From an uncultured cyanobacterium (GTDB taxonomy: Bacteria; Cyanobacteriota; Cyanobacteriia; Cyanobacteriales; Nostocaceae): DNA of 64,000 nt. The translations under genes were made by a program, and so were the position numbers. Under the pieces are notes generated by a model. That model was not told the DNA's origin, ran no database searches, and saw only the letters and a program-made list of their open reading frames with translations. This document shows, piece by piece, positions 31,543 through 49,214 of the stretch; the stretch's first letter is position 1, and each line of letters opens with the position of its first letter. The DNA lies in assembly GCA_963706595.1 (NCBI GenBank), contig OY970166.1:5056001-5120000 (forward strand), given 5' to 3'.

Positions 31543-32279
31543 TAGTCATCATTCTCCAACTCATATTCAATTTCTACATCTGCTGATTTAAGAGCAAGTA
31601 AGTCATCAACTCTAGCTTCAGGGTTAGCACTTAAGTATCCTTTCACTAAGTCCTGTATAAGTTCTTTGGGGTCTACACTTAGCTGAGTATAAAGGGCTTG
31701 AAGGGTAACTTCATTTTCATTCTTATCTCTCAAATCTTTTTTAGTTTTCAAGGTAGCATTGATTTGAGCTTGATGAATCTGAATAACTTTAGATAAATCA
31801 GTGATAGCTTTACTAAGACCATTGATATTATTAGTAATTACCTCTACTTCTCTAGCAGAAGAATCAGTTGCAGAAGTAGATAATTGTACTGCTGCTTCAT
31901 ACCTATCCATTAATTCTGTTTGATGATCAATGAGGCGACTTAGCATAGCATCAGATAACATAATGCTATTGTCTAGTAAAGTTTCTTTAGAGTAATCTGT
32001 AGCTAATAATTCTTTTCTTTCTTTAGCAGATAGTGATTTAATTGCTTTCATATCATTTTGTTTAACTAGTTTAGAGTGTAGACCATGAGTGATTCTAGCC
32101 TTAGCTGCTTTACCCCCATGAGATGCACAACATTGGTAACCAATCATTACTTTATTTTTACATTGGGTGCCATCTCTTTTAATAACAGGACACCTTTGAG
32201 GTTCAGGTCTTCTACCTGACTTATACCTATGTTTGTAAACTGCACTGTCTACATAGCTAGGTTTATTTTCTTGAGACAT
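31542..32279 (-). CDS. Probable terminase small subunit (HGGxSTG-like Zn motif)
   Basis: CPVIKRDGTQCKN...CCASHGG...THGLHSK; stop overlaps the terL start. Confidence 0.7.
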   Translation of the reverse strand: MSQENKPSYVDSAVYKHRYKSGRRPEPQRCPVIKRDGTQCKNKVMIGYQCCASHGGKAAKARITHGLHSKLVKQNDMKAIKSLSAKERKELLATDYSKETLLDNSIMLSDAMLSRLIDHQTELMDRYEAAVQLSTSATDSSAREVEVITNNINGLSKAITDLSKVIQIHQAQINATLKTKKDLRDKNENEVTLQALYTQLSVDPKELIQDLVKGYLSANPEARVDDLLALKSADVEIEYELENDD

Positions 32280-32360
32280 TTATATAGATATATTTTATAA
32301 AAGTACCAGCAGACATAATCTACTGATACTTTATTTTAGCTGATATTAAGTGTGTAATAA

Positions 32361-32741
32361 TTATTTAGAAACTAGAGTTTTAATAATTTTCACATCAGTT
32401 TCAATTTCAGATAACTTATTAATGATTTCAGCTTTATTACTTCTAGATTCAAAATCTATTTGAGTAAGAAGTTTAGTAGTATCTTTAGTAGTTTCAGAAA
32501 AGGTTTTAACTGCCTCAGTCTGAGAAACTAAATAATGTTTAACAGATGACCATACTTCAACATTGATAAATTTAAAAAAGTATCTTGAACAGAAAGCAGT
32601 AACTCCACCAACTGTAACTAAGGTAAGTAGTATTGCTAAAGGAGCGCTAGTAATTGTGTCCTTAGTAGTAAAGTAAGCATCTCTCTGAATGTCAACAGGA
32701 ACTGATACCTGTGCTTGTTGTTTATTAAAATTATTATCCAT
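32361..32741 (-). CDS. Single-TM coiled-coil protein, possible holin
   Basis: One TM segment; located between fibre and terminase. Confidence 0.4.
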   Translation of the reverse strand: MDNNFNKQQAQVSVPVDIQRDAYFTTKDTITSAPLAILLTLVTVGGVTAFCSRYFFKFINVEVWSSVKHYLVSQTEAVKTFSETTKDTTKLLTQIDFESRSNKAEIINKLSEIETDVKIIKTLVSK

Positions 32742-32755
32742 CTTTAAACCTATTA

Positions 32756-34309
32756 TTAAGGTGCAATCTCCATAAGTGTTACAGAAGAATATCCTTGGTT
32801 ATAAGAATTAACTAATTTGTTTATCCAAATATTTGTAATACTAGAAGCACCAAGAAAAATACCATATTCAACAAATGAAGTAGTACCAGGACTATCTAAA
32901 ATATCATAAGTAATACTATTTGAGGCAATAGTAGCATCAATAGGAGTGAATCTAGTTGTTTGTAAAGTGCTACTAGTTGGGCTCATTCTTCTTAATTCCA
33001 CAATTATAACTGTACCACTTTGAACACTAAGCCCACCTAAGGAAAGTCTTATTAATATTTTGCTATTAACATTAGAAGGTTGGATAATTGTTTGTGGAAA
33101 ACCTAAGTACCCAGGGGTAGTTCCAGCTTGAGCTTGAATTTCATTACCACTACCTACTGTTACTACTTGTAATACCTTACCTCCACCACCACCTCCACTA
33201 GCAGCCGCTTGAGGTTCCCACCTGCTATTAGCAGAACTGTAAACTAATACTTGACCATCAGTAGGAGCAGCAGTATGTACATTGACTCCTCTAAGTTTGT
33301 CTGCATTCCATTGTGCAGTACCATTACCAACTTGAGCAGCAGTAACAGAGTGAGGGTTATTAGTTGCAGTTACGTGACCAGTAACAGTTGTATTTGAAGA
33401 TGCACTAGTCAATCTACCATCAGCACTAACAGTTATGTTAGCAGCGTTATAAGCTCCAGCAGTGACTCCTGAATTTCCTATTGAGGGATTAGGATATGTG
33501 CCAGTTAATGAACCTCCTGCTGATCCTGTAGGGTTTCTAGAATCAGTTAATCTAGAGTCTGAAGTATTAACTTTACCAGCTAAGAAAGTGTCTAGTTGTA
33601 GAGTGGTATAAATTTCAGAAACATCAGCTTTATCATTTAGCAAAGCATCTGTTTCTGTTTTCAAATAGTAATCAGTTAAATCAACAGAACCGCCAGCCCC
33701 AGTCTCATCAACTGCATATTCTAAAGATTGACTAGTGGAGTTATATTTTAAAACTTTACCATCCCCTATAGCAGAGTCATCTACAGCTACACCTTTAATG
33801 CGATCGCTATTCCATTGTGCAGTATCTTTACCTACCTGTGTAGCTGTTACTGAGTGAGGATTAGAAGTGCTAGCAATGTGAGCAGAAGTAGTAGACTCAT
33901 TTGCTTTACCAGTTAATAAGTTATCTACCTCAGTTTTAAGATAGTAAACAGTTAAGTCTGGACTATCAGGAATTAAGTTATCTACTTCAGTTTTAGTGTA
34001 GTAACTGGTTAAATTAGAAATATCAACTTTATCAGTTAATAAAGCATCAACTTCAGTTTGTGAATAATAAGGAATCTCTTCTGAACCTGAACCAACACTT
34101 CCTTGAGCAAGTAAGTCCCAATCTAAAGCAGTCAAGCTGGGTTCTTCACTTGTAGTCTTGTTAGCTCTATAAGATGAGCCATCATAGAAGACTCCTTGGT
34201 TGCGTCTGTATATCCTGCTAGTGACCCAATCTCCTACCCATACTACAGAAATACCATTGACAGTAGGGATAGGGCTAGAAGAAGTAGCTGGGTTAATTTC
34301 TATTGCCAT
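32756..34309 (-). CDS. Tail fibre / receptor-binding protein
   Basis: YY.KTEVD.LL repeats, duplicated [32 protein letters not shown]...WEP, poly-Gly hinge, GKVLQVV C-terminal domain. Confidence 0.8.
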
Positions 34310-34310
34310 A

Positions 34311-35693
34311 TTAATATCCTTTTAAAGTTCCTCTAATAAACAATTGAGTGTTAGCTTCAGTGCCAGTAATCTCAACTTTAATTACATTTGTATTAACTAA
34401 TGAATAGCTCTTAACAATAGCGTTATCAGTAGCTATCTCTCCTACTGGTTCCCAAGTAGTACCTGCTAATTCTTTTAGAACAAAGCTGACATTAGCACTA
34501 GCAACAAGTTCAATATCTAATCTCTTGTAATTCTTAGTATCAATGAACCCACCAATATAAGTCTGTACTTCAACTACAGTAGGTATACCAAAATAATCAT
34601 TATCTAAATCTAATTGGAATACAGGCACAGTGTCTTCTAATTCTGTTTGGTGATCAACTAGGTAGGATATAGTAAACTGTCCTGCTGAAGTCCATGCACC
34701 ATTAGTAGCAGTTTTCTCTATGAGTGCAGCTTTATCTTCTAATACATAAGCCCTATCAACTTGTCTTAATTCAATAGAAGATAGTTTTCTTTGATTAACA
34801 ACAGATAAGTCTCTATCTTCTTGTCTAGCAATTTCTGCTAAACTTTTATTTTTCTCAGCTTCAATTAAAACTAATCTTTCTGCTAAAGTTAATTGACCTG
34901 AGACATTACCTCCTTCAGTTTGACTAGCAGTAATAGTTAGTCTTTCCTTCCAGAACTCTTCAGCAGTAATCTCATTTAAGATTCTAATTCTCAGATAAGC
35001 AAGAATTAAAGTTTCATAATTAGTTTTACAGAGAGTAGTTAGGGTTCTATCCTTTGTGATATCTAAACCAGCAGCAGTTTGTAATTTAGTAACGGGATCA
35101 GATACTAGGAAGAATTTAACACCAGCAGCTATAGTGTTGAAAGCATCAGCATGATTAGCTGTAATAAGAGTAAGGTCATCAACATAGGATTCAGCACCCT
35201 TAGCTTGAGTATTATTAATTAACTCTAGTACAGGATTGCCTGTGCCAACGTTTCTCTCAGCTACAGTGAACATTTCTATTCTCTGCCCTGGAGTATTACC
35301 AACTAACCTTATCCTGGTAGAGTCATCAAAAGCAGTAACATCTGTATTAAAGGTAGCGTTAGCATTTATTAAAGTAGTGAGGTTTGAAGTTACATTAGCA
35401 ATGGTGGCATCAGTAGCATCAAAGGAAACACTAACGTTTTTATAAGTGAGAGAAAATCTATTACCTGTAGTTACTTGGCTAGGGTTTAAATAGATTATTT
35501 GAGAAGTAGCAGGGACAGTAGTTGTACTAGGTATAGGTCCAATATCAACTAAACCTTTAGAAACTAAATCTGTGATAGCAGCAAATGTAGTTTTCTTAAG
35601 AGTATCATCATCATACTGTACCCCATAGATATCTGCTATCTGAGGTTTCAAGTAAGCACTTTCAAATAAATCCCAATTAATTGATGTAGGCAT
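34311..35693 (-). CDS. Putative virion structural protein
   Basis: 460 aa in the tightly packed late operon; central coiled coil. Confidence 0.55.
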
Positions 35694-35696
35694 AAA

Positions 35697-36584
35697 TTAT
35701 GTTTTTAAAATACTATTTATAGAAAGAATTGGTTTGTAACCAACGTTAGTAAAATCAAGAGCTAAAATGGCTTGTATTGTATTGTTTAAGAAATCAGGCT
35801 TTGCTAATATTTTAAGCTGACTTGATAGTATAAAACTGTTCAACTCATTAAAAGCAGCTATTTGTTTTGATTTTATTTTTTGTAAGACAATCTTCTTTTC
35901 TAAAAAAACTTCATTATCTTTACCTTGTATTGCACGTTCACTTTGTTCTTCAATAGTAAAGAAGTTTGTAGGTATCTTTCTTTGCACATAAACTTCTTTG
36001 TAGAAGCCATCAGTAAATATCTCTGGGGCTAAAAGTCCTGCTGTATAAGCATATTCAAATTGCTTAGTTTGGGAACTAGAAAAGTCACTAATCTTTTTAG
36101 TTTTAGTAGGTTTCTGAAATGTTAATTCTATATTGCCTACAAAGAACCTTCTATTTTGTATGATTTCTGTATCCCCTATTCTATAAGGGTTGAACCTTTG
36201 TTCTAGTAACCAGTCTCTATTATAAATAAATCTTAACTCTTCCCTTTCTTCTGAAGTAGGTGAATAGTCTATACCTTTAATATTATTAGGTAGAGGTACA
36301 AAAGGTTGATTTCTTAAATAGGTAGCTAATGAATCCCAAAAGGAAGGATCTTCAGTTAACTTAGTTAATAGATTGCTAATATAATTAACAACTAAAGCCT
36401 GTCTATAATTGTACCCTGCTATACCCAAGTAAGCTAAATTATTTCTAAATAATAAGAAGGCAGCTTCTCTTCTTTGAAAGATAGGAGATAGTTCATCTAC
36501 CTCCCCAAACATTATATTAAATAGCTCATCAGATACTTCTTCATCTAAAATGATATTTAAAAAGCCATCATTTAAAGTAGTCAT
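35697..36584 (-). CDS. Putative virion protein
   Basis: 295 aa, 3-bp spacing within the late operon. Confidence 0.5.
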   Translation of the reverse strand: MTTLNDGFLNIILDEEVSDELFNIMFGEVDELSPIFQRREAAFLLFRNNLAYLGIAGYNYRQALVVNYISNLLTKLTEDPSFWDSLATYLRNQPFVPLPNNIKGIDYSPTSEEREELRFIYNRDWLLEQRFNPYRIGDTEIIQNRRFFVGNIELTFQKPTKTKKISDFSSSQTKQFEYAYTAGLLAPEIFTDGFYKEVYVQRKIPTNFFTIEEQSERAIQGKDNEVFLEKKIVLQKIKSKQIAAFNELNSFILSSQLKILAKPDFLNNTIQAILALDFTNVGYKPILSINSILKT

Positions 36585-36587
36585 ATT

Positions 36588-37157
36588 TCAAATAAAGTTA
36601 AAATCAAAAGTCCCACCCACAGAAGAAATATTTATATCTGTAGCTTGTACACTGGATAATTGAATTACTAATACTCCTTCTTCTAAAATACTATTCTGTG
36701 CTACTTTAAATAACTGCCTATTGTTTTTCAAATCAAGGAAGGGTATATCAAATCTTAATTCATAAGAGTTAAGCTGGTTACCATCAGGCACTTGAGGATA
36801 CCAATAGTAAGGTATAGGGGTAATGAGTAGAACGTCAGCAGGGTTAGTATTTAATACTCCAGTAGGAAGAGTAGGTAATTCTATTCCTGGACTAATCTGA
36901 GGTCTTTTAATACTCTCTAGTAAGTATCCAGGTAAAGCCCAAGCCCTTTGAGTTTTCTCAACAATAAAAGGTCCTGAGTCTCCATTTTGTACTTCTCTAA
37001 ATCTAACTGCATAATCATCAATAAAATAATTAACTGATGATTTTATATTGCCTGAATAGTCAACTGCTAATATTCCACTAAACTGAGAGACTAAATGAGA
37101 TAATGAATTTCTTCTAGCCATTAACTCATAATGCTCAATTCCTGTAATAAGACTCAT
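36588..37157 (-). CDS. Putative virion protein
   Basis: 189 aa, ATGA overlap with the upstream gene. Confidence 0.5.
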   Translation of the reverse strand: MSLITGIEHYELMARRNSLSHLVSQFSGILAVDYSGNIKSSVNYFIDDYAVRFREVQNGDSGPFIVEKTQRAWALPGYLLESIKRPQISPGIELPTLPTGVLNTNPADVLLITPIPYYWYPQVPDGNQLNSYELRFDIPFLDLKNNRQLFKVAQNSILEEGVLVIQLSSVQATDINISSVGGTFDFNFI

Positions 37158-39418
37158 AATGTTATACCTGATATGTCTACAAGTTGTTGAAGTACAGCTA
37201 TATCTACATCTACTCTGCTAGCTCCACCTCCTGATAAGAACCACAGTTGTCCAGCACCAGTATTAGTTTCTATACTAAAGGCACCAGATGAGTTTATTCC
37301 ATAAGTACCAATACCAGCAGATACAGGTCTACCCCTACTATCTAGAGGAACAAAAGTAGTTAAGCTATCTACATTTAAAATAGAGTTTGTATAGTTTTGA
37401 TAATTTCTAACATTGAGGTTTCTTCCTTCCCACTTCCAAAACTTTAGACAAGTGCTTTTACAGTAATCTATTAACTCTACTAAAAAGTTACTAATAGCTA
37501 ATTCATAATAATGCTGTATAGGACTTATACCTCTAATAGCCGCAGCTTGTTCAATTGAAGGCAAGTCACTAATAGCAGGCAAAGAAATAAGTTTGTTAGT
37601 TAAATAATCTTCTGTGTAATTAAAATCTAAAGGAACATCTCTTACAGTTGAACTGCTAAGTTTTATTTTACTTTCTAATAAAATAGAACTGAAAGGTAAT
37701 GTATAAGGCATCAGCTTCCACTTGTCAACATTAGTATAAGTATTAGGGATTGACTGATATACATCTTTAGCTATTTCATCTGAGAAGCTTACCCCACCAA
37801 TTAGAAAGTCTTCTGGTGAATTATTTGTCCAGTAGCTATCAGAGAAGTTTGGAACATAAGGACCAGTTGTATTACTAGATAAATTAGTAATTGTTTTTCT
37901 GGTGGTTCCGTTTACTACCACATAGCTTACTAAATAAGTAGTTGGGTTATTTGCCTGATTAAAGTTAGAACGTATTTCTAAATTAGTAATTTGATTAAAG
38001 CTTAACTTTTCACAAAATAAGCTACCACCTAAATTAACAGGACTGGCAGGATTAGTTATATCAAGTAGCTCTCCAATTAATTTACCTGGAAATGGATTAC
38101 CAGTAACTTTAAATAAAGCATTGTTATTATATGCAGGAGGAACAAAATGTCTTCCACCAGCATTAGGAGTAATAACATTACCTGTAGGATTAAAAGCAGT
38201 AAAGTTATAAATAGGTCTAGAATTTGATGCACTTACTCCCCCATGAGTAACACGAATCCTGGCAGGAAAAGGTACACCATTTCTAGTTAAAGTTAATAAT
38301 AATTCTCCATTAGGTATTTGTAATCCTTTTGTAATAGGAGAAAAATCTACTTGATAGGCAGCATTACCTGGGGTGTTACTATTGCTTGAAGGGATAAATG
38401 AGTCAACTATACAATCTTGAGTAAAATAAGAACCAGCACTTTGAATATTATCAACATTAGCAATACTATTAGTAGGTATGATTCCTCTAAATAAAGTACC
38501 TCTGTTTAGTGCGTTTATAGAAGTTGAAAAAAGTTGATAGTAAACATTAGGGTTGTCAAATTGTGCTTGAGTGGGTGTGCCACTAAAATATTTTCTAAAG
38601 TAGCTAATAGTTACTGGATCACCAAAGAACTGTGGTTGATCATATCTATGAGTAGAAGTAAAGTTTGTACCATCATAACTAGCTCTTAAGGTAAAGTTAT
38701 TATAATCAAACCAGTTAGCAACAAGAGGTGTAGTAGGTACTGGAATCTTTACATTAGTAATATCTACATTAGTTTTAAAATCTAATTGGCAGGTTATAGG
38801 TCCACCTGACATTCTAGCTATTGCTCCATAAGGTGCACTTAAACGGTTTGTAGCTAAATCAATTTCATTTCTTATATCAGGGAAATAATCAAAAACATCT
38901 ACACCTGTTAAATCATTTAAGCCAAATACTATTTCTTCTAACTGTTCACCATTTCTAAAAGAAGGAATGCCTGTAGTAAATGCTCCTGTTAATTCTCTAT
39001 TTGATATACTTGCAGTACCAGAACTGGATGTAAAGGTTACTGAATAATCATCAGGTGTAATACTTTTTATAGAGGTGGTAGTTCCACTAGCAAAGTTAAA
39101 ATAAGGTCTTTTAACCTGCCTAATAAACCCAAAGTAAGTTCTGTATGCAGCAGCCCATAGTCTCATTAAACCAAAAGGATTAATGTTATTCCTAACTAAT
39201 CCACCAGAAACCCACATATCAATTAAGCTATTAAAGTTGCTTGGGTTACCAGCTTGAGAAGATAAGCCTACAGAACATCCTGGTATGAATTGTGTGTTAG
39301 GAGGAGGATCACCAGGTCTACTTGTTAAGGCATTACCTTGAGTTAGTTCAAAGGTGCTGCTATTAGGATATCTCTTAATGAATTGAATAACTTTATTCTT
39401 ATGTAGCGGATTTGCCAT
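37154..39418 (-). CDS. Large N/T/P/S-rich putative virion (tail/spike) protein
   Basis: 754 aa directly after the capsid gene; beta-rich composition. Confidence 0.55.
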   Translation of the reverse strand: MANPLHKNKVIQFIKRYPNSSTFELTQGNALTSRPGDPPPNTQFIPGCSVGLSSQAGNPSNFNSLIDMWVSGGLVRNNINPFGLMRLWAAAYRTYFGFIRQVKRPYFNFASGTTTSIKSITPDDYSVTFTSSSGTASISNRELTGAFTTGIPSFRNGEQLEEIVFGLNDLTGVDVFDYFPDIRNEIDLATNRLSAPYGAIARMSGGPITCQLDFKTNVDITNVKIPVPTTPLVANWFDYNNFTLRASYDGTNFTSTHRYDQPQFFGDPVTISYFRKYFSGTPTQAQFDNPNVYYQLFSTSINALNRGTLFRGIIPTNSIANVDNIQSAGSYFTQDCIVDSFIPSSNSNTPGNAAYQVDFSPITKGLQIPNGELLLTLTRNGVPFPARIRVTHGGVSASNSRPIYNFTAFNPTGNVITPNAGGRHFVPPAYNNNALFKVTGNPFPGKLIGELLDITNPASPVNLGGSLFCEKLSFNQITNLEIRSNFNQANNPTTYLVSYVVVNGTTRKTITNLSSNTTGPYVPNFSDSYWTNNSPEDFLIGGVSFSDEIAKDVYQSIPNTYTNVDKWKLMPYTLPFSSILLESKIKLSSSTVRDVPLDFNYTEDYLTNKLISLPAISDLPSIEQAAAIRGISPIQHYYELAISNFLVELIDYCKSTCLKFWKWEGRNLNVRNYQNYTNSILNVDSLTTFVPLDSRGRPVSAGIGTYGINSSGAFSIETNTGAGQLWFLSGGGASRVDVDIAVLQQLVDISGITL

Positions 39419-39428
39419 AATACTTTAA

Positions 39429-39446
39429 AGGGGGATTATACCCCCT
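39429..39446 (-). terminator. Hairpin after the capsid gene (attenuator/terminator)
   Basis: AGGGGG-TATAAT-CCCCCT then TT on the minus strand, 6 bp after the stop. Confidence 0.6.
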
Positions 39447-39452
39447 CACTAA

Positions 39453-40526
39453 TTAAAGGTTACTAGGTGCTGTGTAGGAAGTTGCTGTTAGTTGAAGGAC
39501 TGCACAAGCTCCACGGTGGTTAGGTGCATATCCCCAACCGTCTGTCATGATTGTGTTTTCTAAAGCAAAGTTAGACTTAACATCAACTTGTAAACCAGCC
39601 AAGCTAGAAATAGCAGGTATGCGGCTTAAGAAAGGAGTTCTGTTAGCTCCACCATCTACACCTACAGCAACTGCATAATTCAAAGGTACTACAGGTGTTT
39701 TGATAATAGGAACGTTAGAAATGAAACCTACCAAGCCTTCCCAAGGACTTAGTTGACGCATTCTTTCATTACTAGCACCACCACTTTGAATATCAAGTGA
39801 GCGTCCAATTTGATTTTCTGCTGGTACAAACTCAGGTAAAGCTTCTAAGCGGTACTCATAATCACTAACCCAGATTTCAATTTGTTTGAAACCATGATGT
39901 CTGATTTTGTCAATCAATTTGCTGCGTACATCAACAGCAGTAGGATTACCTGCACTAGCAACACCAGTGTAATGTTGTAGGTCACCTGCTACAAAGGTAT
40001 AACCATTTACACTAGGAGCAGCAACAGAGTCTGCATCATTGTAAAAAGGAATACTAGTAGTCTGGTACTTCTGAATACTGTCAATTACTACACGGTTGGT
40101 ATTAGTAAAGATAGCTTGACGTAACGCACTAAACCTAGCTTTTTGGAAAGAAGTAAGTTTGGCTTGTACATAAGAAGCTAGCTCTTCAGAGGTCATTAAC
40201 CTAACAGCTCTACTGCTCAAAGTAAGTGCAGTCATAAACTCTTCATAAGGAATTTCTTGCATGTAATCCCATACAGAAGTCCGTGAGGTAGGTCTAGCTG
40301 ATTCAGTTAGATTTTCTAAATCCTCTCCTTCATAACTTTTGATCAACTTTTGAGGAGTAGCAATTGTTTCTGTCAGAGGAGCAAAGAAACGTGCATTCAT
40401 GTCAGTGTAGTGCATGAAGTCAGAATCTAAGTCTCTGATGATACTAACAACAGACTGATTATCAATAGTGACTAGCTCAGTATCATTAGTAGAAAGTTCA
40501 CCAAAGAAAGTAGTATTGTATGCCAT
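39453..40526 (-). CDS. Probable major capsid protein (HK97-like)
   Basis: 357 aa after portal/scaffold/cement; ISNVPIIKTPVVP..YAV and GWGYAP..RGACAVLQL C-terminal pattern; followed by a hairpin. Confidence 0.7.
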   Translation of the reverse strand: MAYNTTFFGELSTNDTELVTIDNQSVVSIIRDLDSDFMHYTDMNARFFAPLTETIATPQKLIKSYEGEDLENLTESARPTSRTSVWDYMQEIPYEEFMTALTLSSRAVRLMTSEELASYVQAKLTSFQKARFSALRQAIFTNTNRVVIDSIQKYQTTSIPFYNDADSVAAPSVNGYTFVAGDLQHYTGVASAGNPTAVDVRSKLIDKIRHHGFKQIEIWVSDYEYRLEALPEFVPAENQIGRSLDIQSGGASNERMRQLSPWEGLVGFISNVPIIKTPVVPLNYAVAVGVDGGANRTPFLSRIPAISSLAGLQVDVKSNFALENTIMTDGWGYAPNHRGACAVLQLTATSYTAPSNL

Positions 40527-40551
40527 ATATTTTTATTTATGTATTTATTAA

Positions 40552-40917
40552 TTAAATAGAGATTTTAATTTTGTTAGCAGTCAGAGCAACACCAACTTTA
40601 TTGGTTCCTGTACCTGCAACAATACCAGCAGCACCAGCAAAGACAGCAGTGCCAGGTGTGAGAGCTAAGGAAGTACCTTTGTTTTCAACAATGCAATCTT
40701 GCTCTACAGCTAACATAGTGCCTGCTTTACGGGCATAACGTGCTACCCCAACAGGGATAGTAGAGGCAGTTGCTAAGATAGCTAAACCAGCAGAGTTAAT
40801 GGAAACTACTGAACCTTCAGGAATGTCTACTGCTGTAACTAAATTAACAATAGAACCCTCTAAATGAGAAGAGGCAATGAATCTGTATTTGACAACGTTG
40901 TAAGCTACATTTAACAT
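40552..40917 (-). CDS. Capsid cement/decoration protein
   Basis: Small Ala/Gly-rich: IPEGSVV...PVGVA...ALTPGTAVF...VGVAL. Confidence 0.65.
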   Translation of the reverse strand: MLNVAYNVVKYRFIASSHLEGSIVNLVTAVDIPEGSVVSINSAGLAILATASTIPVGVARYARKAGTMLAVEQDCIVENKGTSLALTPGTAVFAGAAGIVAGTGTNKVGVALTANKIKISI

Positions 40918-40943
40918 ATTTTTAAATTATAAGTAATTGATAT

Positions 40944-41336
40944 TTAATACCCACGCCAAGCTTTAACTTTGCGTTCTTCTTTAGTAGAAGTTTGTTGTAG
41001 TGGTACTCCAGGTTTGGTAACCACATCTTTAGTACCTGATGCTTTAGCTAATGCACCTTGTAAAGCAGCTTGAATCTTAGGTACTAAGTTTTCTTTTAAG
41101 TCTGTTTCTAGTGATAACTGTTTAGCTAAATAGTCTGCTTCTACTTCTTCTTGAGAAGAACCAGATGCTTTAATACCTAGCAGTTTAGCCATCCTTTGAA
41201 AGTCAGGTTTAGTTTTAGCTAATGCAGCTTCATAATCAATCTCAGGTGCATCAGGTGTAATAGCTTCTAAACCTAAATCTAGTTCACTTGTTTCTTCAAT
41301 GGGAGTTTGTTGTACTTCACTCATCTTCAGTTTCAA
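40944..41336 (-). CDS. Putative scaffolding protein
   Basis: Acidic helical protein with basic C-terminus between portal and capsid genes. Confidence 0.5.
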   Translation of the reverse strand: MKLKMSEVQQTPIEETSELDLGLEAITPDAPEIDYEAALAKTKPDFQRMAKLLGIKASGSSQEEVEADYLAKQLSLETDLKENLVPKIQAALQGALAKASGTKDVVTKPGVPLQQTSTKEERKVKAWRGY

Positions 41337-42745
41337 TATTATTTTCTATAGGGTCAATACTATCTTCTACAGGTTGAATAACTTTAGTGCCAGGGTTATT
41401 AATTGCCTTATCTGTAAAGATATTACCATCATCAGCATTAGCAGCATCCTTACTATCAACTAGGGCAGCACTGTATTGAATGTTAAGTCCTTTTTCTGCA
41501 TCTAGCTGTTCAAGTTCTTTGTCAGCTTCTGCTTCAGTTAGACCTTCAACTTGAATCAAGTATCTCTTTCTAGAAATAAGTTTATTCTTGACAGCTTCTA
41601 TTTGTAAACGCTTATCTTCTAAGTTTTCAGGCATCATGTCAGGCAGATCTACTCTAAAAGCTATGTCAATACCTAACTCTGAGAAAATAGTCTTAAGGGC
41701 TGAAAGAAGATAACTAGCTCTACTTAATGTAGCACGTTGTAGTGGCTCATACAACACACTAAGAGAAGATGAACTACTGGCTGATCTAGCATTCTGTAGT
41801 TCTAAGACCATGACTCCACAAAGACTATAAATATCTTGCAGAATGATTAGTCTCTGTCTTTCTAGATAAGGTGAATCTTGAGGTTGTAAATAACCAATGC
41901 GAGGAGTGATACCAAGTTCAGCCGCAGCATTACTAATAGGCAGGTGTAGAATACTAGCACCATCAGAAGTAAATGCTGTTTGAAAAGCTGATGAACCTGT
42001 AGCAGACTCTATACTCTCAAGAGGAGATGAATTAGAATCTACCAATAAATGTAGGTGCAGAAGTTCCAATTGTATAAACCTGTGGCTTGTGATGCTGTCC
42101 ATTTGTGTGGATGCGTGACCGGACTGCACAATACTCCAACTGTAAATGAATTAACCTTTCAATTGGAGATTGTGACTCTCTTCCAATGAGAGAATTTACA
42201 ACTCTTACAATAGGTATATGATCACCTAATTCTACTGGTTCAGCATTGCCTACTTTTTGAAAGTATCTGTATGCAGGTAAGTCAAATACATTTAACTCTG
42301 GGGATTCATTGGTGAGAGTTAAGTAATGCTCTACTCTTACATCAGTGTATGCATTTCTAACAGGGTCATAGACTTCTCTTTTCTCCCGCAGGTACACTAC
42401 TTGCATTGGGTTATTAGGGTCAACCTTAATTTCCTCAATGTCAAGCGTATGAATATGACGCAGCTTACCTTGAGAAACCTCAATGAAAGATTCACCAAAT
42501 ACAGGTACTTCCAAATAGACATCACTCAGGATTCTATAAAGATTAATCTCATTTAGTTTGTCATCTAATTGTTCTTGTTGCTCAGAATTGATAGCTAAGA
42601 ATTTAAGTTTTTTTTGATAGCCATCTCCCAATAAAAATCCTTTGATTTGCTCTACAACTAACTGAATTAGCTTGACTGGTAACTCTTGATTAGTAGCAGG
42701 GTTGATACCTTTGTAAGCATCAAACAATTCTTGTTTAGAACTCAT
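41317..42745 (-). CDS. Portal protein (SPP1-like), one extra base near 42048
   Basis: VEQIKGFLLG, IPIVRVVN..GRESQSPIE.LI.LQ, SSSSLSVLYEPL, ISRKRYL...AEADKELEQL; two ORFs join if one T of ACA-TTT-A is removed (~475 aa). Confidence 0.75.
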
Positions 42746-43280
42746 GTATATAAAGTTTCACTTATGTTTATTATATATCTTAATTATACAAGTAGAAAGT
42801 AGGATAAATAGGTTTTTGTATAGGGATACGTGTATGGTTTAAGGTATAGTGGCTACAGAGGGCTGGGTGAGGGGCATTCTACCCCCAGGGGGAGGTTTTA
42901 ATAAAGGTTACTCACCTCATACAACATACCCCTATTAGTCTACTTATTAAATAGGTATCAGTGTTCCTTTAAAGAAGTGCTACATTACTTTTATAATAAG
43001 TATAATGACTACTGGCTTAACAGATAGTAGTGAGTAAGTCTTACTATGTAGTGGTGTACTCCCTAAGTCTACTCAGTACAGTAGTATATGTATAGTATCA
43101 TATATACTTAGTTGTCTATTAGTTAAGCTTGACACTTCAGTAAGGATGAGTAGTATTCACTATATATAATATGTAATAGTTATCTTACAATCATCCATTA
43201 GAGTAATAGTTAGTAACTGTTCTTATATGCTTAAGTAAGTATATAGTATAGTTGTACTAACTGTATAGAGTACATACATA

Positions 43281-43426
43281 GTGTGTGTATATGTCTACTA
43301 CTATTGCTATGTGCATAGTGTGTACTGTTACTGTAGGTACTACTGTTGGTGTGTGTATATGTCTACTACTATTGCTATGTGCATAGTGTGTACTGTTACT
43401 GTAGGTACTACTGTTGGTGTGTGTAT
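43281..43426. repeat. Perfect 68-bp tandem duplication plus 10 bp
   Basis: Units start at 43281, 43349 and 43417 (GTGTGTGTATATGTCTACTACT...). Confidence 0.92.
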
Positions 43427-43534
43427 GTGTATACTGTGTGTGTGTACCAGTGGTAGTAGCTGACTGTAGTAGCTGTGTGTGATGTTACTTACATAAGATT
43501 GTTTATTATTATTTATTATTATTTATTATTTGTT

Positions 43535-43834
43535 ATGGATTTAGATGTAGAGTTCCGCAATGGATGGCGACTACACAGTGCAGTGGTGGCTAGGTGGTTG
43601 GGTGTACCCCATACCCAGGTGAGGGCTACCATAGCTAACCACTACAAGGCTATAGATACAGTAGGCTATGGTCTATGGGAGTCAGGGTCAGACTACTGGT
43701 TAGAGCAATGTCATATAGACCTACTCATCTGCTACCTATTCAAAGGGGATATGCTCACCAGTCTTATGGCTACTGTCTCAGCAGAGTTTACTAACTTTAA
43801 GAAGCAGCATCTTAAATCAGGTGGCTTAGTATAA
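43535..43834 (+). CDS. Rha-like phage regulatory protein
   Basis: LHSAVVARWLGVPHTQVRATI...YWLEQCHIDLL parallels the Rha domain of 44561-45331. Confidence 0.6.
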   Translation: MDLDVEFRNGWRLHSAVVARWLGVPHTQVRATIANHYKAIDTVGYGLWESGSDYWLEQCHIDLLICYLFKGDMLTSLMATVSAEFTNFKKQHLKSGGLV

Positions 43835-43884
43835 GTGTACTATGCGTGATAGCTTTGCTTTGATATATGAGTAATGCTACAAAG

Positions 43885-44065
43885 TTTGCTGACTATTTAT
43901 AAGCTGTCTGACTATTACCTAAGCAATTAGCTGACTATTCATAAGCTGTCTGACTATTAGTTTGCTCTATGGTTTGCTGACAATTAGCTGGCTTTAGTAA
44001 GCTGCCTTGAGTAAACTGTCTAACCATTAGCTGCTGTCCAATAAACTGCCTCAAGTAAATTGTCA
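43885..44065. repeat. Degenerate ~14-bp periodic repeat array
   Basis: TAA(G/A)CTG / TTAGCTG cores at 43900, 43927, 43942, 43984, 43998, 44012, 44027, 44042, 44056; 30-bp near-perfect pair at 43888 and 43930. Confidence 0.75.
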
Positions 44066-44256
44066 GATAAAAGTTTAGTAATTACAGTTTGCTTTGATTC
44101 TCCTTTTAGAGATTATCTATATCTATCTATTACTTGTTCTATCTCTATTAGTAAAGTATATGGTTTTGTAAGTGGTGGCGTTTTTAAAATGTATTGTAAA
44201 AGAATGCTGATAAAAGTCCTCTTATTTTTACTGCCCAATTAATACAGGTATTTATA

Positions 44257-44285
44257 TTGACTAGACTCTTAAAGAATGTTATTAT
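44257..44285 (+). promoter_or_regulatory. Sigma70-type promoter of the early operon
   Basis: TTGACT-N17-TATTAT with extended TG, 35 bp before the RHH ATG. Confidence 0.7.
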
Positions 44286-44319
44286 TAGTAGTATAAAGAA
44301 ATTCAATAAATACACAAAT

Positions 44320-44478
44320 ATGAAACTAGATAAACTTACTTCAATCAGACTTTTTAAAGGTGACAATGACCAGCTTCAAAAGATAGCTGATGCCAAAGGT
44401 TTAGACAGAGCTGACATTATCAGAGAAGCAGTTAAGCTCTATCTGCAAGGTGAAAGAGATCAGACTTTTAGCTTTTAG
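44320..44478 (+). CDS. Ribbon-helix-helix (CopG-like) regulator
   Basis: TSIRL...DQLQKIADAKGLDRADIIREAVKLYL. Confidence 0.85.
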   Translation: MKLDKLTSIRLFKGDNDQLQKIADAKGLDRADIIREAVKLYLQGERDQTFSF

Positions 44479-44560
44479 TAAATCCCTTAGTGTAGAGGAC
44501 TAACCTTTACACTCCATTCATTAAAATTATACAAATCATATATATTAAACTCACAAAACT

Positions 44561-45331
44561 ATGTCTAACTTACAAATTACAGTACAAAACATTAACTCAG
44601 AATTGGTTGTTGACTCTAGATTGATTGCTTCTGAGTTAGGGGTTCTACATAAAAATCTTAAAGAGCTAATTAAAACTTATTACGCTGACTTTTATCAACT
44701 TGGTCAGGTCGCGTTTGAAACGCAGGCTGGAGATATTAGATATGCTGAAACTTTTTATTACTTAAATGAAGACCAGTGTTATTTACTACTGACTTACTGT
44801 AAAAATACTCCTCAAGCTAGACAAGCTAAACTTAATTTAGTTAAAGCTTACAAAGCAGCTAGAAATACTGTTGATTTACCTAATAATTTAATTGATGCAG
44901 TTGAGGCTTATCTTATTGCTTTAAAAGAGAAGCAGGCTTTAGCATTGGTGGCTGCTGAGGCTCAAGAGAAGGTAAATGAGTTAACTCCTAAAGCTCAAGA
45001 TTGGGATGCTCTCTGTGACCGTGAAGGGCTGATGAATGTAGAAACTGTAGCTAAAGTTCTTTGTGTAAAAGGGTTAGGTAGAAATAATTTATTTAGATTT
45101 TTACGTGATAAGAGTATTCTAAATTTAAGCAATAACCCTTATCAAAACTTTGTAGATACAGGTTACTTTGTAATCAGAATTAAGTACAACCAATACACAC
45201 TGAAAGATGATTCTGTTACCTTAGTTACACCAAAAGGTTTTAGTTTCATTAAGCGTACACTTGAGAAAGCAGGTTATAGTATTCCTACTAATCCTACTCC
45301 TCCAGGTGCAGCAGCTCTTAAGGCAGCATAG
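44561..45331 (+). CDS. Rha-domain / KilA-C (ANT) antirepressor
   Basis: VDSRLIASELGVLHKN...LNEDQ...KLNLVKAY; PKAQDWD...VAKVL...GRNNLFRFLRD...PYQ...TLVTPKG. Confidence 0.88.
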   Translation: MSNLQITVQNINSELVVDSRLIASELGVLHKNLKELIKTYYADFYQLGQVAFETQAGDIRYAETFYYLNEDQCYLLLTYCKNTPQARQAKLNLVKAYKAARNTVDLPNNLIDAVEAYLIALKEKQALALVAAEAQEKVNELTPKAQDWDALCDREGLMNVETVAKVLCVKGLGRNNLFRFLRDKSILNLSNNPYQNFVDTGYFVIRIKYNQYTLKDDSVTLVTPKGFSFIKRTLEKAGYSIPTNPTPPGAAALKAA

Positions 45332-45463
45332 TTAAAACAAAGAGAGGGGTAACCACTCCCCTCTCACACACAAAACATATTCTAAATTCTTACAAATAAC
45401 TATATTCTTAATTACATTATACTACATACACTACATATTATTACAGAATTATTAAAACTAAAT

Positions 45464-47018
45464 ATGAATAACGCTTATATTATTAAAACCCTTAGAAGTC
45501 CTGAATCAGTTAAGACCTACTTAGATACCTTGCTAAAAGACTTTACTAAATCTGATTATCAATTCTTTGTTCATGTTTACAGTAGCACTCTAGTATCTTT
45601 TATACAGAGAGAATCTGGTTGGGTTCCTATTAGTGCAGAATTAATTAGAAAGCAGTGGGGTAAAACAAAAATTCAGCTTGAAAAGATGAAAGAAGCTGGT
45701 CTACTAGAAATTAAGGTACTGGATCAACTTGAGCTTGCTGATGGGTTATTCCTAGAGCAAACCTATTCTAGGAAAGATGGTCTATGTCGGTGTTATAGAA
45801 CTCCTCTAGAAATAATGGAACAAATAGAGTACCATTCTCCTGATTCTTCTGAGGAATATACCACCTGCCAATATTACAATTTAATGACTGGTAAAAAAAT
45901 GAATGAGCAGGTGAGATACCTTAAAAAAGACCACAATAATAATTATCATTCTGATTTGCTTTTGGGAGCTATGGATACAATCAAAAAATGTATAGTTAAT
46001 TTAAGTGCTTTGGAGGCACATGTAGAAGCTCTAAAAGATGCGTTGAATCTTTGGTACTGAAAAAGACTTAAGGGCTTTTATTGTGGATAATTCTTGCCTT
46101 AAACGGATTAGAGAAAATCACACCCCATTAGAAAATGGTTTGGCTGAGTATCAGGTAATCTTTGGTGACCCTCAAATGTCTGGTAGATTAACTGAGCTAG
46201 GTAGTTGTATGCAGGGCTGCTCTAGAGAGATGAAAAAGCAGGGGTTCAGTGATATCCCTGGTATTAAAAACTATGATCTAAAGTCTAGTCAAGTATACGG
46301 TTTAATTCAATGGTTTGAAAAAGCTAAGATTGATACTTCTTGGTTGCATGAATACTTAGCTCAAGATAAGCAGGTATATGCTGATGCAGTAGGTATCAGT
46401 AAAGACAGATGGAAGCAGTGCTTTATGGCACTAATTATGGGAGGTTACTTACAAGAAAATGTAAAAGCTAAGAACTTTGAAGTGGTTAAGGTTGTTAAAA
46501 AGATAAGAGGACAATTGATAGAGCAGGAAGACTACCCTAATGTAGCTCTCATCAGGGCTTTATGTCAGGAAGCTAAAGGGAATCCAGATTTAGCTCTGAC
46601 ATATTACACTAGGTTTGCTCAAGTGGTAGCTCCCTTGAAGGCTTGTATTGATGCTTGGCAAGAATGGATGCTAACAAAGTATATCCCAGATGAATCTTTT
46701 TACGCTCATAGCCAGCAGTTACTTGTAAATAAGACAGGTAAAACTTTTAACTTAACAGAGTATCAGACTAAGGGGGAGTGGGATAAAAAGAAAGTTAACA
46801 AAATGAAAAGAAGGCTCTCAGCTTTCCTTCTGCAAGGCACAGAGGCAGCTTATATACATCACCTAACTGTAATCAGTAAGGACTTTGGGTACAGAGTCCT
46901 AAGTAATCAGCATGATGGTTTGGTAACAATTGGAGAGATACCTAGAGAAGCAATGGATATAGCTAAACGCAACTCAGGTCTAAAGTATGCTTACCTAGAG
47001 GAGAAGGCTTTTGTTTAA
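45464..47018 (+). CDS. Divergent Pol A / T7-RNAP-fold polymerase (TV-Pol-like), one extra base near 46050
   Basis: SGRL, motif A NYDLKSSQ, motif B KQCFMALIMG, LQGTEA, motif C QHDG; two ORFs join by removing one base (NL-GTEKDLRAFIVDNS), ~517 aa. Confidence 0.65.
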
Positions 47019-47393
47019 CCCATAGAGGTTGATACACCAGTAGACTGAATCAAAGGGGAGGGGTCATGAAGACTGCTCTCTTTTTGACTTGGGGGGCTGG
47101 AATCCTGATTTTGCAAAATTTTAGATATAAACAGGGGGGGTCAGGAAAGAGAGGGAACCAGGAGAACAGGAGACAGGAAGGGGGTATCAGGCAGGGAAGC
47201 AGAGTGAAGAAGACTCATATAAGGTATGTATGGCATAGTCTGTACTACACTATAGCTATAACCCTTACCCAGTAAAGATTACAGGCTATAAACTCCATGA
47301 GTTACGTAGAAGTAAACCCATAATAATAGTATTAAAAAGTACCTAATTTAATATAAGTAGGTACTCTATAATATACCCAAGTATATCTAAGCG

Positions 47394-47591
47394 TTAAATG
47401 TTGCTTTGTGTAGGGGAATAATTTGGTTTACTATAATACACTTTCTCTAAAGCTGAAGGAGAATGGTATCTGGGAGGGTTATGTTTATAGTTTCCTCTTA
47501 AACAAGATTTTACGTTTCCTATTAACAAAAAACAAAGAAGAGTAAGGATAGCATTAACTATTGGTCCCCCTTCATCACTGTTATTTGACAT
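47394..47591 (-). CDS. Small TM hypothetical protein
   Basis: 65 aa, ATG start, one hydrophobic stretch. Confidence 0.4.
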   Translation of the reverse strand: MSNNSDEGGPIVNAILTLLCFLLIGNVKSCLRGNYKHNPPRYHSPSALEKVYYSKPNYSPTQSNI

Positions 47592-47740
47592 ACATTTATT
47601 GTTTTGAGTTGAAATTTAAGCACCTAAACCTTAATGTAAGATATTCCCTAAACGCTAGATAGAGAAAAATTACTGAAATGTATCTTCATCTAAGCTTCAT
47701 GAGCCAACTACAAGATTAGCTGACTCATTAAGTTAATTTT

Positions 47741-47962
47741 TTAATCCATTCCAATTAGATAAAGTCTTATGTAAAGTTCATTTAACCTTGCATAAATCTT
47801 AGAGAAATCAGCGTTTAGGACTTTCCTGCTCAGTTCTTCTAGATAGGGTTGATTATACTCAAAACCCTTATCACATTCCTTTAAAACATGAATAGTATAA
47901 TTCAACTCTTCAACAGAAATCTCTAATGCTTCAACTATTTCTTTTACTTTTTGGTTGTGCAT
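47741..47962 (-). CDS. Small hypothetical protein downstream of the integrase
   Basis: 73-aa helical ORF co-oriented with int. Confidence 0.55.
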   Translation of the reverse strand: MHNQKVKEIVEALEISVEELNYTIHVLKECDKGFEYNQPYLEELSRKVLNADFSKIYARLNELYIRLYLIGMD

Positions 47963-48015
47963 GATAGATAAATATCCTAAACTAAATGGGTTTTCTGGAA
48001 TGATTATTTGATTGC

Positions 48016-49092
48016 TTACAATTCAGGTAACTTAGGTTTTTTAATACTGCCTAGATAATGTCTAAAGATTATCTCAGGGCTGTTACCAACCAAGTCTGCC
48101 ACCTCATGAGGAGGAATACCACTGCTAATACAATGGCTAATAAAGGTTGACCTACAAACATAGAGTGGACGGTGAGGAATACCTAAGTTTTCCAAAGTTA
48201 TCTTCCAACACCGTTGACCTATATTGTGATCATCAAGTGGTAGACCTTTAGGTGAAGTAAAAATCAACTCTTGTTTATTCTTTGCCTCAGACCTAACCTT
48301 TAGTATTTGGTACACCTTGCTATTCATAGGTACAATCCTATAAACATTTGTTTTGGTGGTCTTCCTGACTCTTTTAGAGCTTCTACCTTTAACTTTATTC
48401 AGAGTTTCATAGACATGAATTTCCCTTTTCTGTAGGTCAATATCCTGCCACCTCAAACCAATTGCTTCACTAAGGCGTAACCCAGTGTTAAGTAACAGTA
48501 GTATAAAATCATGATAGTGATTGTAAAAAGGATCTCTTTGTAGAGAACTCAGAATCATATCCACTTCATTAGTGGTCAGTGGTTTAGCTCTAGGTTTATC
48601 TGGAACCTTGACCTGAAAGCTACCAAACAAATCTTTCCTAAGCACCTGCAAAATAGCTAGGTATCTTTTCTTACTATTCTTTTTAATACCCCTACCATCA
48701 AGCCAGTCTAGAAACTCCTTAGCATCCACACTGGTTTTGATTTGCTTCTTATATCCTTGCAGGAGTTTGAGTAGGGATTGGTCAGCAGAATTGTAGTTAT
48801 CAGCAATCCGTAGCTGAAGCATTTCAATTAGTGGAGGAAACCTTGATTCAGGAGGCTTGCTACCACCATTGCCACCATAAGTAATGCCCTGTAACCAGAG
48901 CTTATACTTGTTGAGTGTAGGATCAAATTGACCTATCAAACAATCCTGGTATATTAACTTACCACAGTAATCTAGCCTAGCTCTCTCTGAGGTATCTTCC
49001 CACGCACCCCAAGTTAGACTGTACCTTTCATCCTGATAAGTCCATCTGAGAATGCAAGAATTACCATTCTTCTGAACCTTTATTTGCCGCAC
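48016..49092 (-). CDS. int: Tyrosine integrase with N-terminal arm-binding domain
   Basis: TGLRLSEAIGLRWQDID, KTTKT, YVCRSTF, VGNS...HY; 78 bp from the right att. Confidence 0.95.
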   Translation of the reverse strand: MRQIKVQKNGNSCILRWTYQDERYSLTWGAWEDTSERARLDYCGKLIYQDCLIGQFDPTLNKYKLWLQGITYGGNGGSKPPESRFPPLIEMLQLRIADNYNSADQSLLKLLQGYKKQIKTSVDAKEFLDWLDGRGIKKNSKKRYLAILQVLRKDLFGSFQVKVPDKPRAKPLTTNEVDMILSSLQRDPFYNHYHDFILLLLNTGLRLSEAIGLRWQDIDLQKREIHVYETLNKVKGRSSKRVRKTTKTNVYRIVPMNSKVYQILKVRSEAKNKQELIFTSPKGLPLDDHNIGQRCWKITLENLGIPHRPLYVCRSTFISHCISSGIPPHEVADLVGNSPEIIFRHYLGSIKKPKLPEL

Positions 49093-49170: not shown

Positions 49171-49214
49171 TTCTCAATGCCATTGAGACGCGCTACCAAC
49201 TGTGCTATAGCCCC
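49171..49214. repeat. Right att core: displaced 5' half of tRNA-Ala
   Basis: Identical to 28904-28947; lacks the T arm and 3' acceptor strand. Confidence 0.97.

Follow-up and report, generated by a model that had tools for sequence, protein, structure and literature searches.

The 64,000-nucleotide stretch of DNA analysed here (the window; positions 5,056,001 to 5,120,000 of contig OY970166.1, from an uncultured cyanobacterium of the Nostocaceae) contains a small tailed prophage with a single detectable gene of the replication type. The gene lies on the plus strand at 45464-47018 and is split into two reading frames by one extra base. By its predicted fold, the intact protein of about 517 residues is a minimal right-hand polymerase of the A-family type without exonuclease, and by sequence it is clearly homologous to ORF30 of the Microcystis phage Ma-LMM01. 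Because of this homology, the locus belongs to a family that has been in print since 2008, when it was named TV-Pol (Transposon-Virus polymerase) by Iyer, Abhiman and Aravind (PMC2579912), and within it to the subset with an extra N-terminal domain. With a probability of roughly 0.55, we think that the TV-Pol-type protein starts the replication of its own element as a primase-polymerase. The proposal draws on the fold, the catalytic residues, the homology to ORF30, the linkage of the family to recombinases and mobile elements, and the lack of any other detectable replication gene in the prophage.

A polymerase gene in two frames

The gene appears in the window as two open reading frames (ORFs) on the plus strand, one of 198 amino acids in frame A (45464-46060) and one of 311 amino acids in frame B (46083-47018). 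Frame B is open already from 46047, directly after a TGA at 46044-46046, and frame A meets a TGA at 46058-46060. The frameshift zone thus spans 46046-46060, with the extra base at 46046/46047. When one base is skipped at 46046, 45464-46045 is joined to 46047-47015, and 194 plus 323 residues make up a protein of 517. The 194 codons of frame A (45464-46045) specify a winged-helix-like head (residues ~10-145, nucleotides ~45491-45898) and the first helix of the thumb, and the 323 codons of frame B with the stop codon (46047-47018) specify the second thumb helix, a hairpin, the palm and the fingers.

The join is real and not a chance product, since 54 of the 62 homologues found at E ≤ 1e-3 with the C-terminal half as query are unbroken single chains of 432-558 amino acids, and the closest one is continuous across the junction. 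The other eight are the window's own 311-residue half and seven shorter fragments. The nearest relative, a 517-residue protein of Nodularia sphaerocarpa, is 85% identical and reads through the junction, as do two further near relatives at 81% and 79% identity. Where the relatives have ...LRDQLIFGSQKDL... (DQLIFGSQKDL), the window has ...LKDAL / IFGTEKDL.... At the DNA level, the window reads GTTGAATC, GTTG[A]ATC, compared with GTTG-CTC in the closest genomic relative (L001), and there is no long homopolymer at the break. Programmed +1 frameshifting was considered and rejected, because the homologues are unbroken and no shift-prone signal is evident at TTG-A-ATC-TTT-GGT.

An earlier note on this DNA had proposed the joined 517-residue protein and quoted motifs from it, and all of the quoted strings are present. 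Two of them, PISAELIRKQWG (45626-45661) and KMKEAGLLEI (45683-45712), lie in the head. The others are SGRL, the Arg motif of the beta-hairpin (46179-46190), NYDLKSSQ with the motif A strand NYD (46269-46292, Asp codon 46275-46277), WKQCFMALIMGG with an O-helix-like WK...MG pattern (46410-46445), LQGTEA (46830-46847), and NQHDG, which is motif C (46905-46919, Asp codon 46914-46916). An SREMK motif is found in frame B at 46221-46235.

The fold was predicted with AlphaFold2 for an intact homologue that is 85% identical to the window's protein (P0002), in a model built on 45 relatives (pLDDT 90.7, pTM 0.86). The model consists of the winged-helix-like head followed by thumb, palm and fingers, and no exonuclease domain was found in it or in a Pfam scan. 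Against the PDB, Foldseek gave 169 matches to this model at E ≤ 1e-3, and those listed at the top, with probability 1.00, are without exception DNA polymerases of the A family. When residues ~150-517 were compared with VIA-align, an aligner independent of Foldseek, Pol theta was the best match (Z 17.8, 302 residues aligned, root-mean-square deviation 3.7), followed by Klenow (Z 17.0), the apicoplast polymerase (15.4), T7 DNA polymerase (14.3) and Pol nu (14.2). The RNA polymerases scored lower, with Z 11.2 for the T7, 11.1 for the mitochondrial and 9.9 for the N4 enzyme. The minimal polymerase without exonuclease domains, and the right-hand fold that structure prediction had been expected to reveal, are thus borne out. 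The position between Pol A and T7 RNA polymerase that the earlier note had assigned to the protein has to be revised, as the fold is nearer to the DNA polymerases (Z 14-18) than to the RNA polymerases (Z 9-11).

The structural alignments to A-family polymerases begin at residues 148-155, and in the P0002 model the thumb consists of two antiparallel helices (180-195 and 199-217) directly before the hairpin. Other structure collections point in the same direction. In a search of the ESM Atlas, the matches in rows 4-10 bear PF00476, and many of the 118 matches in BFVD at E ≤ 1e-3 are PolA proteins. The BFVD matches also include the Zamilon virophage replication protein (5.6e-7), that is, the virophage branch of the TV-Pols.

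The head (residues 10-145) is a separate domain, which was also modelled from the window's own 198-residue product (pLDDT 92.9). Its best fold matches are of the winged-helix type, namely the winged-helix domains of ORC2 (Z 6.4) and Cdc6 (5.5) and MotA (5.5), followed by ArsR/MarR proteins (about 5) and RepA (4.5). These matches are weak: none reaches Z 8, and Foldseek returns none at E ≤ 1e-3 (best E 0.16). The winged helix-turn-helix-like N-terminus of the earlier note is therefore upheld as to the type of its relatives, if not as to the closeness of the match, and "winged-helix-like" appears to be a fair label for the modelled domain. All full-length relatives have an N-terminus homologous to this head.

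Conservation was assessed in 191 aligned family sequences, which are all the proteins fetched except the window's two halves, and columns are numbered by P0002. The Gly and Arg of the SGR motif (G240 and R241) are each found in 187 of the 191, and the fingers lysine (K317) in 189. In the motif A region, N269 is present in 189 and D271 in 190 sequences, and Q276 in 179, with His in 11 more. The LQGxEA motif is similarly constant (Q457 and G458 in 186 each, E460 in 190), as is motif C (H483 in 176, D484 and G485 in 189 each). Further conserved positions are K257 (178/191), N422 (188/191) and K514 (189/191). The two aspartates, the conservation of which the earlier note had made a test of its reading, are thus nearly invariant in homologues, and from the conservation of this catalytic pair the enzyme is predicted to be active in the intact members of the family.

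The sequences were also compared with Pol I, the motifs of which were taken from the host's own PolA. No Glu occurs at any of the positions 274-280 in the 191 sequences, and the absence of the Pol I steric-gate Glu from the family, judged by sequence, is solid in any register. The more specific statement that this Glu is replaced by Gln assumes an ungapped register. In the model, the linker from strand to helix after the motif A Asp is longer, and SSQ could match the YSQ of DYSQIE equally well. A longer hhalign alignment to PolA misregistered motif A and was not used for this purpose. Similarly, the Met that the earlier note equated with a Met of T7 RNA polymerase is true of this clade, but its column (K+4) is variable in the family (Y 60, L 38, C 32, M 29 of 191). 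T7 RNA polymerase has an O-helix Tyr that reads the 2'-OH, and its motif C is HDS. The column that we take to be equivalent to this Tyr by motif spacing (K+8) holds Met in 143, Phe in 28 and Tyr in only 5 of the 191 sequences. The description of a motif B without the T7 Tyr and of a motif C of the HDG type (Gly in 189/191) is accurate. The invariant Glu of LQGxEA (E460) coincides with the Gly that replaces the second acid of motif C (G485), and E460 may be a relocated active-site carboxylate that takes the place of this acid.

Membership and spread of the TV-Pol family

Iyer et al. predicted that TV-Pols have primase and polymerase activity, and listed Ma-LMM01 with an integrated TV-Pol element (PMC2579912). 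The traits described in their paper are a thumb of two antiparallel helices, two highly conserved Asp residues in the palm, and fingers marked by a conserved Asp and by the motif RxxxK. A subset of TV-Pols has an extra N-terminal domain and adjoins lambda-type integrases, resolvases, transposases and Bro-N/KilA-C proteins (PMC2579912). Our family profile matches Ma-LMM01 ORF30 (BAF36121.1, 506 amino acids) in head and polymerase (2.6e-11, 4.3e-11), and hhalign of the family against ORF30 gives a probability of 99.3% (E 2.8e-20) over columns 7-325, head included. ORF30 adjoins two transposase genes and has both NYD and NQHDG. In view of the transposase neighbours and the text of the paper, ORF30 most probably corresponds to the TV-Pol reported by Iyer et al. 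in Ma-LMM01, and the relation to TV-Pols that had been suggested for the window's gene holds by way of this protein.

The window's protein shares with the published family the A-family-type core, the coiled coil of the thumb, the Arg hairpin, the two Asp residues, the fingers Lys and the lack of a nuclease. It also shares the extra N-terminal domain and the setting, that of a phage or integrative-element gene close to integrases, resolvases, transposases and KilA-C proteins. With a ribbon-helix-helix protein, a Rha/KilAC anti-repressor-like protein and a tyrosine integrase as neighbours, the locus fits the description of the subset. The N-terminal domain was predicted to be all-helical in the paper, whereas the domain in our model has an alpha/beta structure and resembles a winged helix. 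In our alignment, position K-4 does not conserve the Arg of RxxxK, although the published motif may refer to other residues; an Asp at position 314 is present in 131 of the 191 sequences. Finally, the gene studied here is the only one for replication in a complete tailed prophage, which is a further difference. A text search of the 2023 reclassification of family A polymerases returned no mention of TV-Pol. The papers in which the term "TVpol" came up are, as far as their excerpts go, comparative genomics of virophages and polinton-like viruses.

Family genes are annotated as hypothetical everywhere, since there is no Pfam, NCBIfam, PADLOC or named PHROG model for them. Neither half of the window's gene has a Pfam match at E ≤ 1 except for a sub-threshold RQC hit, and the PHROGs contain only a weak match to the unnamed family phrog_30690 (6.4e-4). 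NCBIfam gave nothing for family members, and PADLOC gave nothing for three of them at E ≤ 0.01. PF00476, to which the host's own PolA scores 1.3e-147, was not matched at E ≤ 0.01 by 14 long members, Ma-LMM01 ORF30 or the protein of Vibrio phage GR7B. Among these same proteins, the fusions found were an HNH_3 tail in P0178 and a weak HTH_36 domain in P0126, and there was no helicase fusion. Sequence searches of the PDB with the C-terminal half and with profiles of 45 and 149 sequences found no polymerase, the best matches being at chance level (Sid and iNOS, E 0.16 or worse).

The family is large. A profile search of 1.84 billion representatives yielded 1227 clusters (50% identity) at E ≤ 1e-3 and 533 at E ≤ 1e-30, most of them of 450-600 amino acids and spanning head and polymerase. 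In species genomes, 17 loci were confirmed out of 104 pattern matches. They come from Nostocales, other cyanobacteria, Pseudomonadota, Labilithrix, Blastocatellia, Meiothermus, Rhodothermales/Rubrivirga, Sumerlaeia and Bacteroidota. Overall, the family spreads over Cyanobacteria, Pseudomonadota, Myxococcota, Acidobacteriota, Bacteroidota/Rhodothermota and Deinococcota, and many phages. In five of the 12 related loci whose neighbourhoods were scanned (64 ORFs), a recombinase of the tyrosine or serine type lies no more than about 4 kb away, and the Nostocales loci share the order ribbon-helix-helix gene, Rha/KilAC gene, polymerase gene and integrase gene.

Some of the more distant settings deserve mention. 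In Blastocatellia (L008:9938-12483), a 387-residue member is followed only by an HTH_17 protein of the excisionase type and a tyrosine integrase. Host genes for TetR/enoyl-CoA hydratase and PfkB enclose this group, and the locus may be a minimal polymerase-excisionase-integrase island or a remnant. In Rubricoccaceae (L013:7029-13605), a 591-residue member comes after a DUF5131 protein, and its neighbour is a gene for a UmuD-UmuC-like fusion of an S24 peptidase with a Y-family polymerase. Distant relatives of 545-618 amino acids are found in the lytic jumbo phages Vibrio GR7B/GR11A, Dickeya JA29/JA11 and Erwinia Yoloswag. In Vibrio phage vB_VcorM_GR7B (L024:5494-7350), the gene is located among genes for a helicase, RNase HI, DHFR and a ligase. 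Small ORFs downstream of the polymerase gene in the distant relatives L005, L007 and L010 have no Pfam match.

The prophage and the likely role of the polymerase

The prophage is bounded by two copies of an exact 44-bp direct repeat (att), and extends from about 28948 to 49171 (20.3 kb). The left copy (28904-28947) lies inside a tRNA-Ala(GGC) gene (28874-28948, minus strand), and the right copy (49171-49214) adjoins the integrase gene. The repeat covers the 5' part of the tRNA (about positions 2-45), and the prophage lies on the upstream side of the tRNA. As a result, the intact tRNA copy is cut off from the promoter region that it originally had. This arrangement is unusual, integration at the 3' end being the common case.

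A structural and packaging operon, identified by PHROG matches, occupies 29890-42745 on the minus strand and includes the genes for the large terminase (29890-31542), a tail fibre (32756-34309), the major head protein (39453-40526) and the portal, which is split in two (41317-42129 and 42032-42745), all on the same strand. On the plus strand follow a 119-residue ORF, a ribbon-helix-helix protein (44257-44478; Pfam RHH_1 5.8e-5), the Rha/KilAC anti-repressor-like protein (44561-45331; ANT 3.2e-16, Phage_pRha 1.4e-11, PHROG 63 Ant 8.7e-33) and the polymerase. The minus strand then holds a 73-residue ORF and the tyrosine integrase (48016-49092; Phage_integrase 4.4e-22, PHROG 1 8.6e-39). Between the anti-repressor-like gene and the polymerase gene, there is an 8-bp G+C-rich hairpin (45342-45365), which scores as an intrinsic terminator for the minus strand, with the T-run on that side. 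Pfam and PHROGs identified no helicase, primase, single-strand binding protein (SSB), initiator or other polymerase family in the prophage, and at this level of detection the polymerase gene is indeed the only replication-like gene, as had been stated.

The 1.5-kb intergenic region between the structural operon and the polymerase module carries repeats. Five same-strand copies of (G/T)CTGAC(T/A)ATT are found at 43888-43985 on the plus strand, spaced by 19-27 bp. With one mismatch allowed, this motif has 15 matches in the window compared with 4.84 expected, and five of them are in this cluster. The same divergent intergenic region contains a 68-bp perfect tandem duplication with a partial third copy (43281-43435), which is TG/TA-rich. 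Related prophages have repeat clusters of different sequence in the same place. The cluster at 43888-43985 is a candidate for a set of element-specific iterons, and possibly for an origin. A scan of 42700-48100 for promoters and terminators found no excess of promoters (20 compared with 20.8 expected).

The role that we favour, that of an element-specific replication starter, would then be exercised as follows. After excision of the prophage, the head would recognise DNA specific to the element, with the cluster at 43888-43985 as the candidate site. The polymerase domain would start or extend a short chain at this DNA, and the host replisome would take over after the short chain. De novo priming, origin binding by the head, the hand-off to the host replisome and the sugar preference are the parts of this scheme that we infer. 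The precedent for such a scheme is CcPol-MP of SCCmec, which Iyer et al. put in TV-Pol and which excerpts of PMC7581432 and PMC10061031 describe as a proven A-family-based DNA primase. In the absence of MP, CcPol does no more than extend primers, and priming needs this OB-fold partner, according to passages of PMC7581432. As a speculation, the fused head could stand in for this partner.

Several observations weigh against the proposed role. Priming and origin binding are deduced from context only in this branch of the family. DNA binding by the head is a guess in view of its weak winged-helix matches, and the iteron-like repeats could instead be operators for the neighbouring ribbon-helix-helix repressor. 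No MP-like OB-fold partner is evident downstream of the polymerase gene, where the only ORF is a low-complexity one of 69 residues (47066-47275). Several large ORFs of the prophage are unannotated and could hide replication functions. Even the assignment to the polymerase superfamily rests on the predicted fold and the motif pattern, since no significant link to Pol I is seen in the sequence: with hhalign, the family gives E 0.08 against the host PolA and E 0.099 against a profile of 21 cyanobacterial PolA sequences (21 of 30 fetched PolA loci), both with probabilities below 1%. The position four residues before K317 is V in 104, K in 36 and R in only 5 of the 191 sequences, so that the Arg of RxxxK is not conserved there; Ma-LMM01 ORF30 also has Val at this position. 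Finally, both the polymerase copy and the portal gene of this prophage are frameshifted, so this particular gene may be dead.

The most serious of the competing roles, which we nevertheless regard as unlikely, is that of a DNA polymerase that depends on primers throughout. The enzyme would fill gaps, take part in repair or translesion synthesis, or replicate the excised element by strand displacement, and would be primed by the host primase or by a transcript, without starting chains of its own. It is in line with this role that the fold is closest to repair-type A-family polymerases (Pol theta, Klenow and Pol nu), that L013, one of the relatives, has a UmuD/UmuC-like fusion gene as its neighbour, and that CcPol is limited to primer extension when MP, of which no counterpart is seen here, is missing. 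Excerpts of Yutin et al. 2024 (PMC11348598) moreover propose a repair role for another diverged PolA with an unknown N-terminal domain. The gene is, however, the sole one of the replication type in a 20-kb phage, and an initiator fits better, also in view of L008, where the polymerase is accompanied just by HTH_17 and integrase genes. The fixed N-terminal head suggests site-specific recruitment, and the linkage throughout the family is to recombinases, not to repair genes.

It is much less probable still that the protein acts as a mini RNA polymerase of the single-subunit type and transcribes the late (structural) operon from phage-specific promoters, a reading that goes back to the second option of the earlier note. 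The fold is common to the T7, mitochondrial and N4 RNA polymerases, but these matches are 6-7 Z units below those of the DNA polymerases. Motif C is HDG without a second acid, comparable to the HDS of T7 RNA polymerase, and a steric-gate Glu is missing, but the position of the T7 Tyr is occupied by Met or Phe. Repeats are present in the divergent region between the structural operon and the polymerase module, but the promoter scan stayed at the level of chance. Moreover, a temperate phage with integrase, ribbon-helix-helix protein and anti-repressor is typical of regulation that depends on the host RNA polymerase, and the family also occurs in tiny islands with little beyond a recombinase and no operon to transcribe (L008, L007 and L010). 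There are diverged polymerases in mobile elements that have a part in defence, and the gene is located in the accessory zone near the integrase that is proximal to the lysogeny functions. Nevertheless, a defence or counter-defence cargo enzyme, making for example a signalling or decoy nucleic acid, seems the least plausible of these roles. PADLOC gave no match for three family members at E ≤ 0.01, the position in the early module is conserved across Nostocales prophages, and lytic jumbo phages have the gene among replication genes, as in Vibrio phage GR7B with its helicase, RNase H and ligase.

The replication-starter role can be taken one step further, albeit tentatively and with the odds against it. 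TV-Pols with a winged-helix-type head may be self-contained site-specific starters, in which the head binds iterons and the Pol-I-type site primes de novo. The loss of the steric gate could make RNA or mixed primers possible, and the third acid would have moved, with the change from HDE to HDG, to the Glu of LQGxEA in the preceding helix. If true, such proteins would make up a third structural class of primases, one that does without an OB-fold partner, and this would explain how a 20-kb tailed phage replicates without its own helicase, primase or SSB gene.

Separate from the role of the family is the state of the copy in the window. The chance that it is a dead remnant, a true frameshift pseudogene in a decaying, non-inducible prophage, is considerable, though below even. 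There is one extra base relative to the relatives, and no close homologue is broken. A shift of one base likewise splits the portal gene of this prophage, into two overlapping ORFs (42032-42745 and 41317-42129, minus strand) near 42037, and the gene's counterpart in the Nodularia relative is a single protein of 455 residues. Neither break is at a long homopolymer, and no slippery signal is evident in the polymerase gene. Two host genes in the same 64 kb are split as well, however. One encodes a cytochrome P450 (54359-55129 and 55110-55763, minus strand), the halves of which match profile positions 1-205 and 212-457. In the other, a NACHT-type NTPase is separated from its WD40 part (23845-25428 and 25388-27517, plus strand), with an overlap of 41 nucleotides and a change of frame. 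The genome is closed, in one contig of 5.57 Mb, yet its completeness is 94.05%, compared with 100 in the 10 genomes sampled from its family or order. The presence of four split genes in 64 kb, together with this completeness, suggests that indels were left uncorrected in a long-read assembly, and the frameshift in the polymerase gene could be an artefact of this kind. Apart from the break, the gene contains no stops and has retained all of the invariant residues, which also speaks against decay. The value of this locus in itself is lower. The family, with its head domain, its recombinase linkage and the priming hypothesis, was already published in 2008, and the copy is interrupted, possibly by an error of the assembly.

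Comparison with known polymerases

Among well-studied enzymes, Pol I (Klenow, KlenTaq), Pol theta and Pol nu are the best structural matches for residues ~150-517 (Z 14-18, ~300 residues aligned). The order of motifs is that of Pol I, with SGR in the place of TGRLS, SREMKxAF in the place of IRxAF, the motif A Asp, the O-helix Lys, LQGxEA in the place of QGxAAD, and HD. In contrast to Pol I, motif C is HDG instead of HDE, and LQGxEA has Glu where Pol I has Ala. The steric-gate Glu, the Arg/Phe/Tyr triad of the O-helix, the exonuclease domains and a PF00476 match are all missing. The T7, mitochondrial and N4 (mini-vRNAP) RNA polymerases share the right-hand fold (Z 9.9-11.2) and the single acid in motif C. 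Nevertheless, they are weaker matches than the DNA polymerases, and the family has roughly half their size and lacks the discriminating Tyr.

The divPolA2 proteins of barbaviruses and related phages are similar in being diverged phage PolA enzymes with an active-looking palm, an N-terminal globular domain and no exonuclease. They differ in that they accompany a regular PolB in lytic phages of 80-130 kb, as described in the excerpts of PMC11348598. At the level of sequence, there was no match of our profile in the representative genome MG592441.1 at E ≤ 10, and hhalign against AUR84708 gave a probability of 0.2%.

A further comparison is with CcPol-MP (Bebel et al. 2020, PMC7581432; Rice 2023, PMC10061031). 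Like the protein of the prophage, CcPol is a truncated A-family polymerase of a mobile element, and in the excerpts it is the only assayed case that has been shown to prime. Residues are numbered here as in Klenow. CcPol keeps the equivalents of E710 and F762 and prefers dNTPs, as stated in an excerpt of PMC7581432, whereas the family studied here has neither the Glu (0/191 at positions 274-280) nor the aromatic residue. Since both the steric-gate Glu and the aromatic O-helix residues kept by CcPol are absent, the use of NTPs is possible and the sugar preference could go either way. According to the accessible parts of PMC7581432 and PMC10061031, CcPol is encoded in an operon with a helicase and MP, whereas no gene for a partner or helicase is found nearby in the prophage. 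On the other hand, CcPol does not have the N-terminal domain of many TV-Pols, whereas the family studied here has a fused head. If such proteins are indeed site-specific primase-polymerases in one piece, they would extend the sole biochemical precedent, CcPol-MP, and would establish the way in which many small temperate phages and integrative islands begin to replicate with the machinery of the host.

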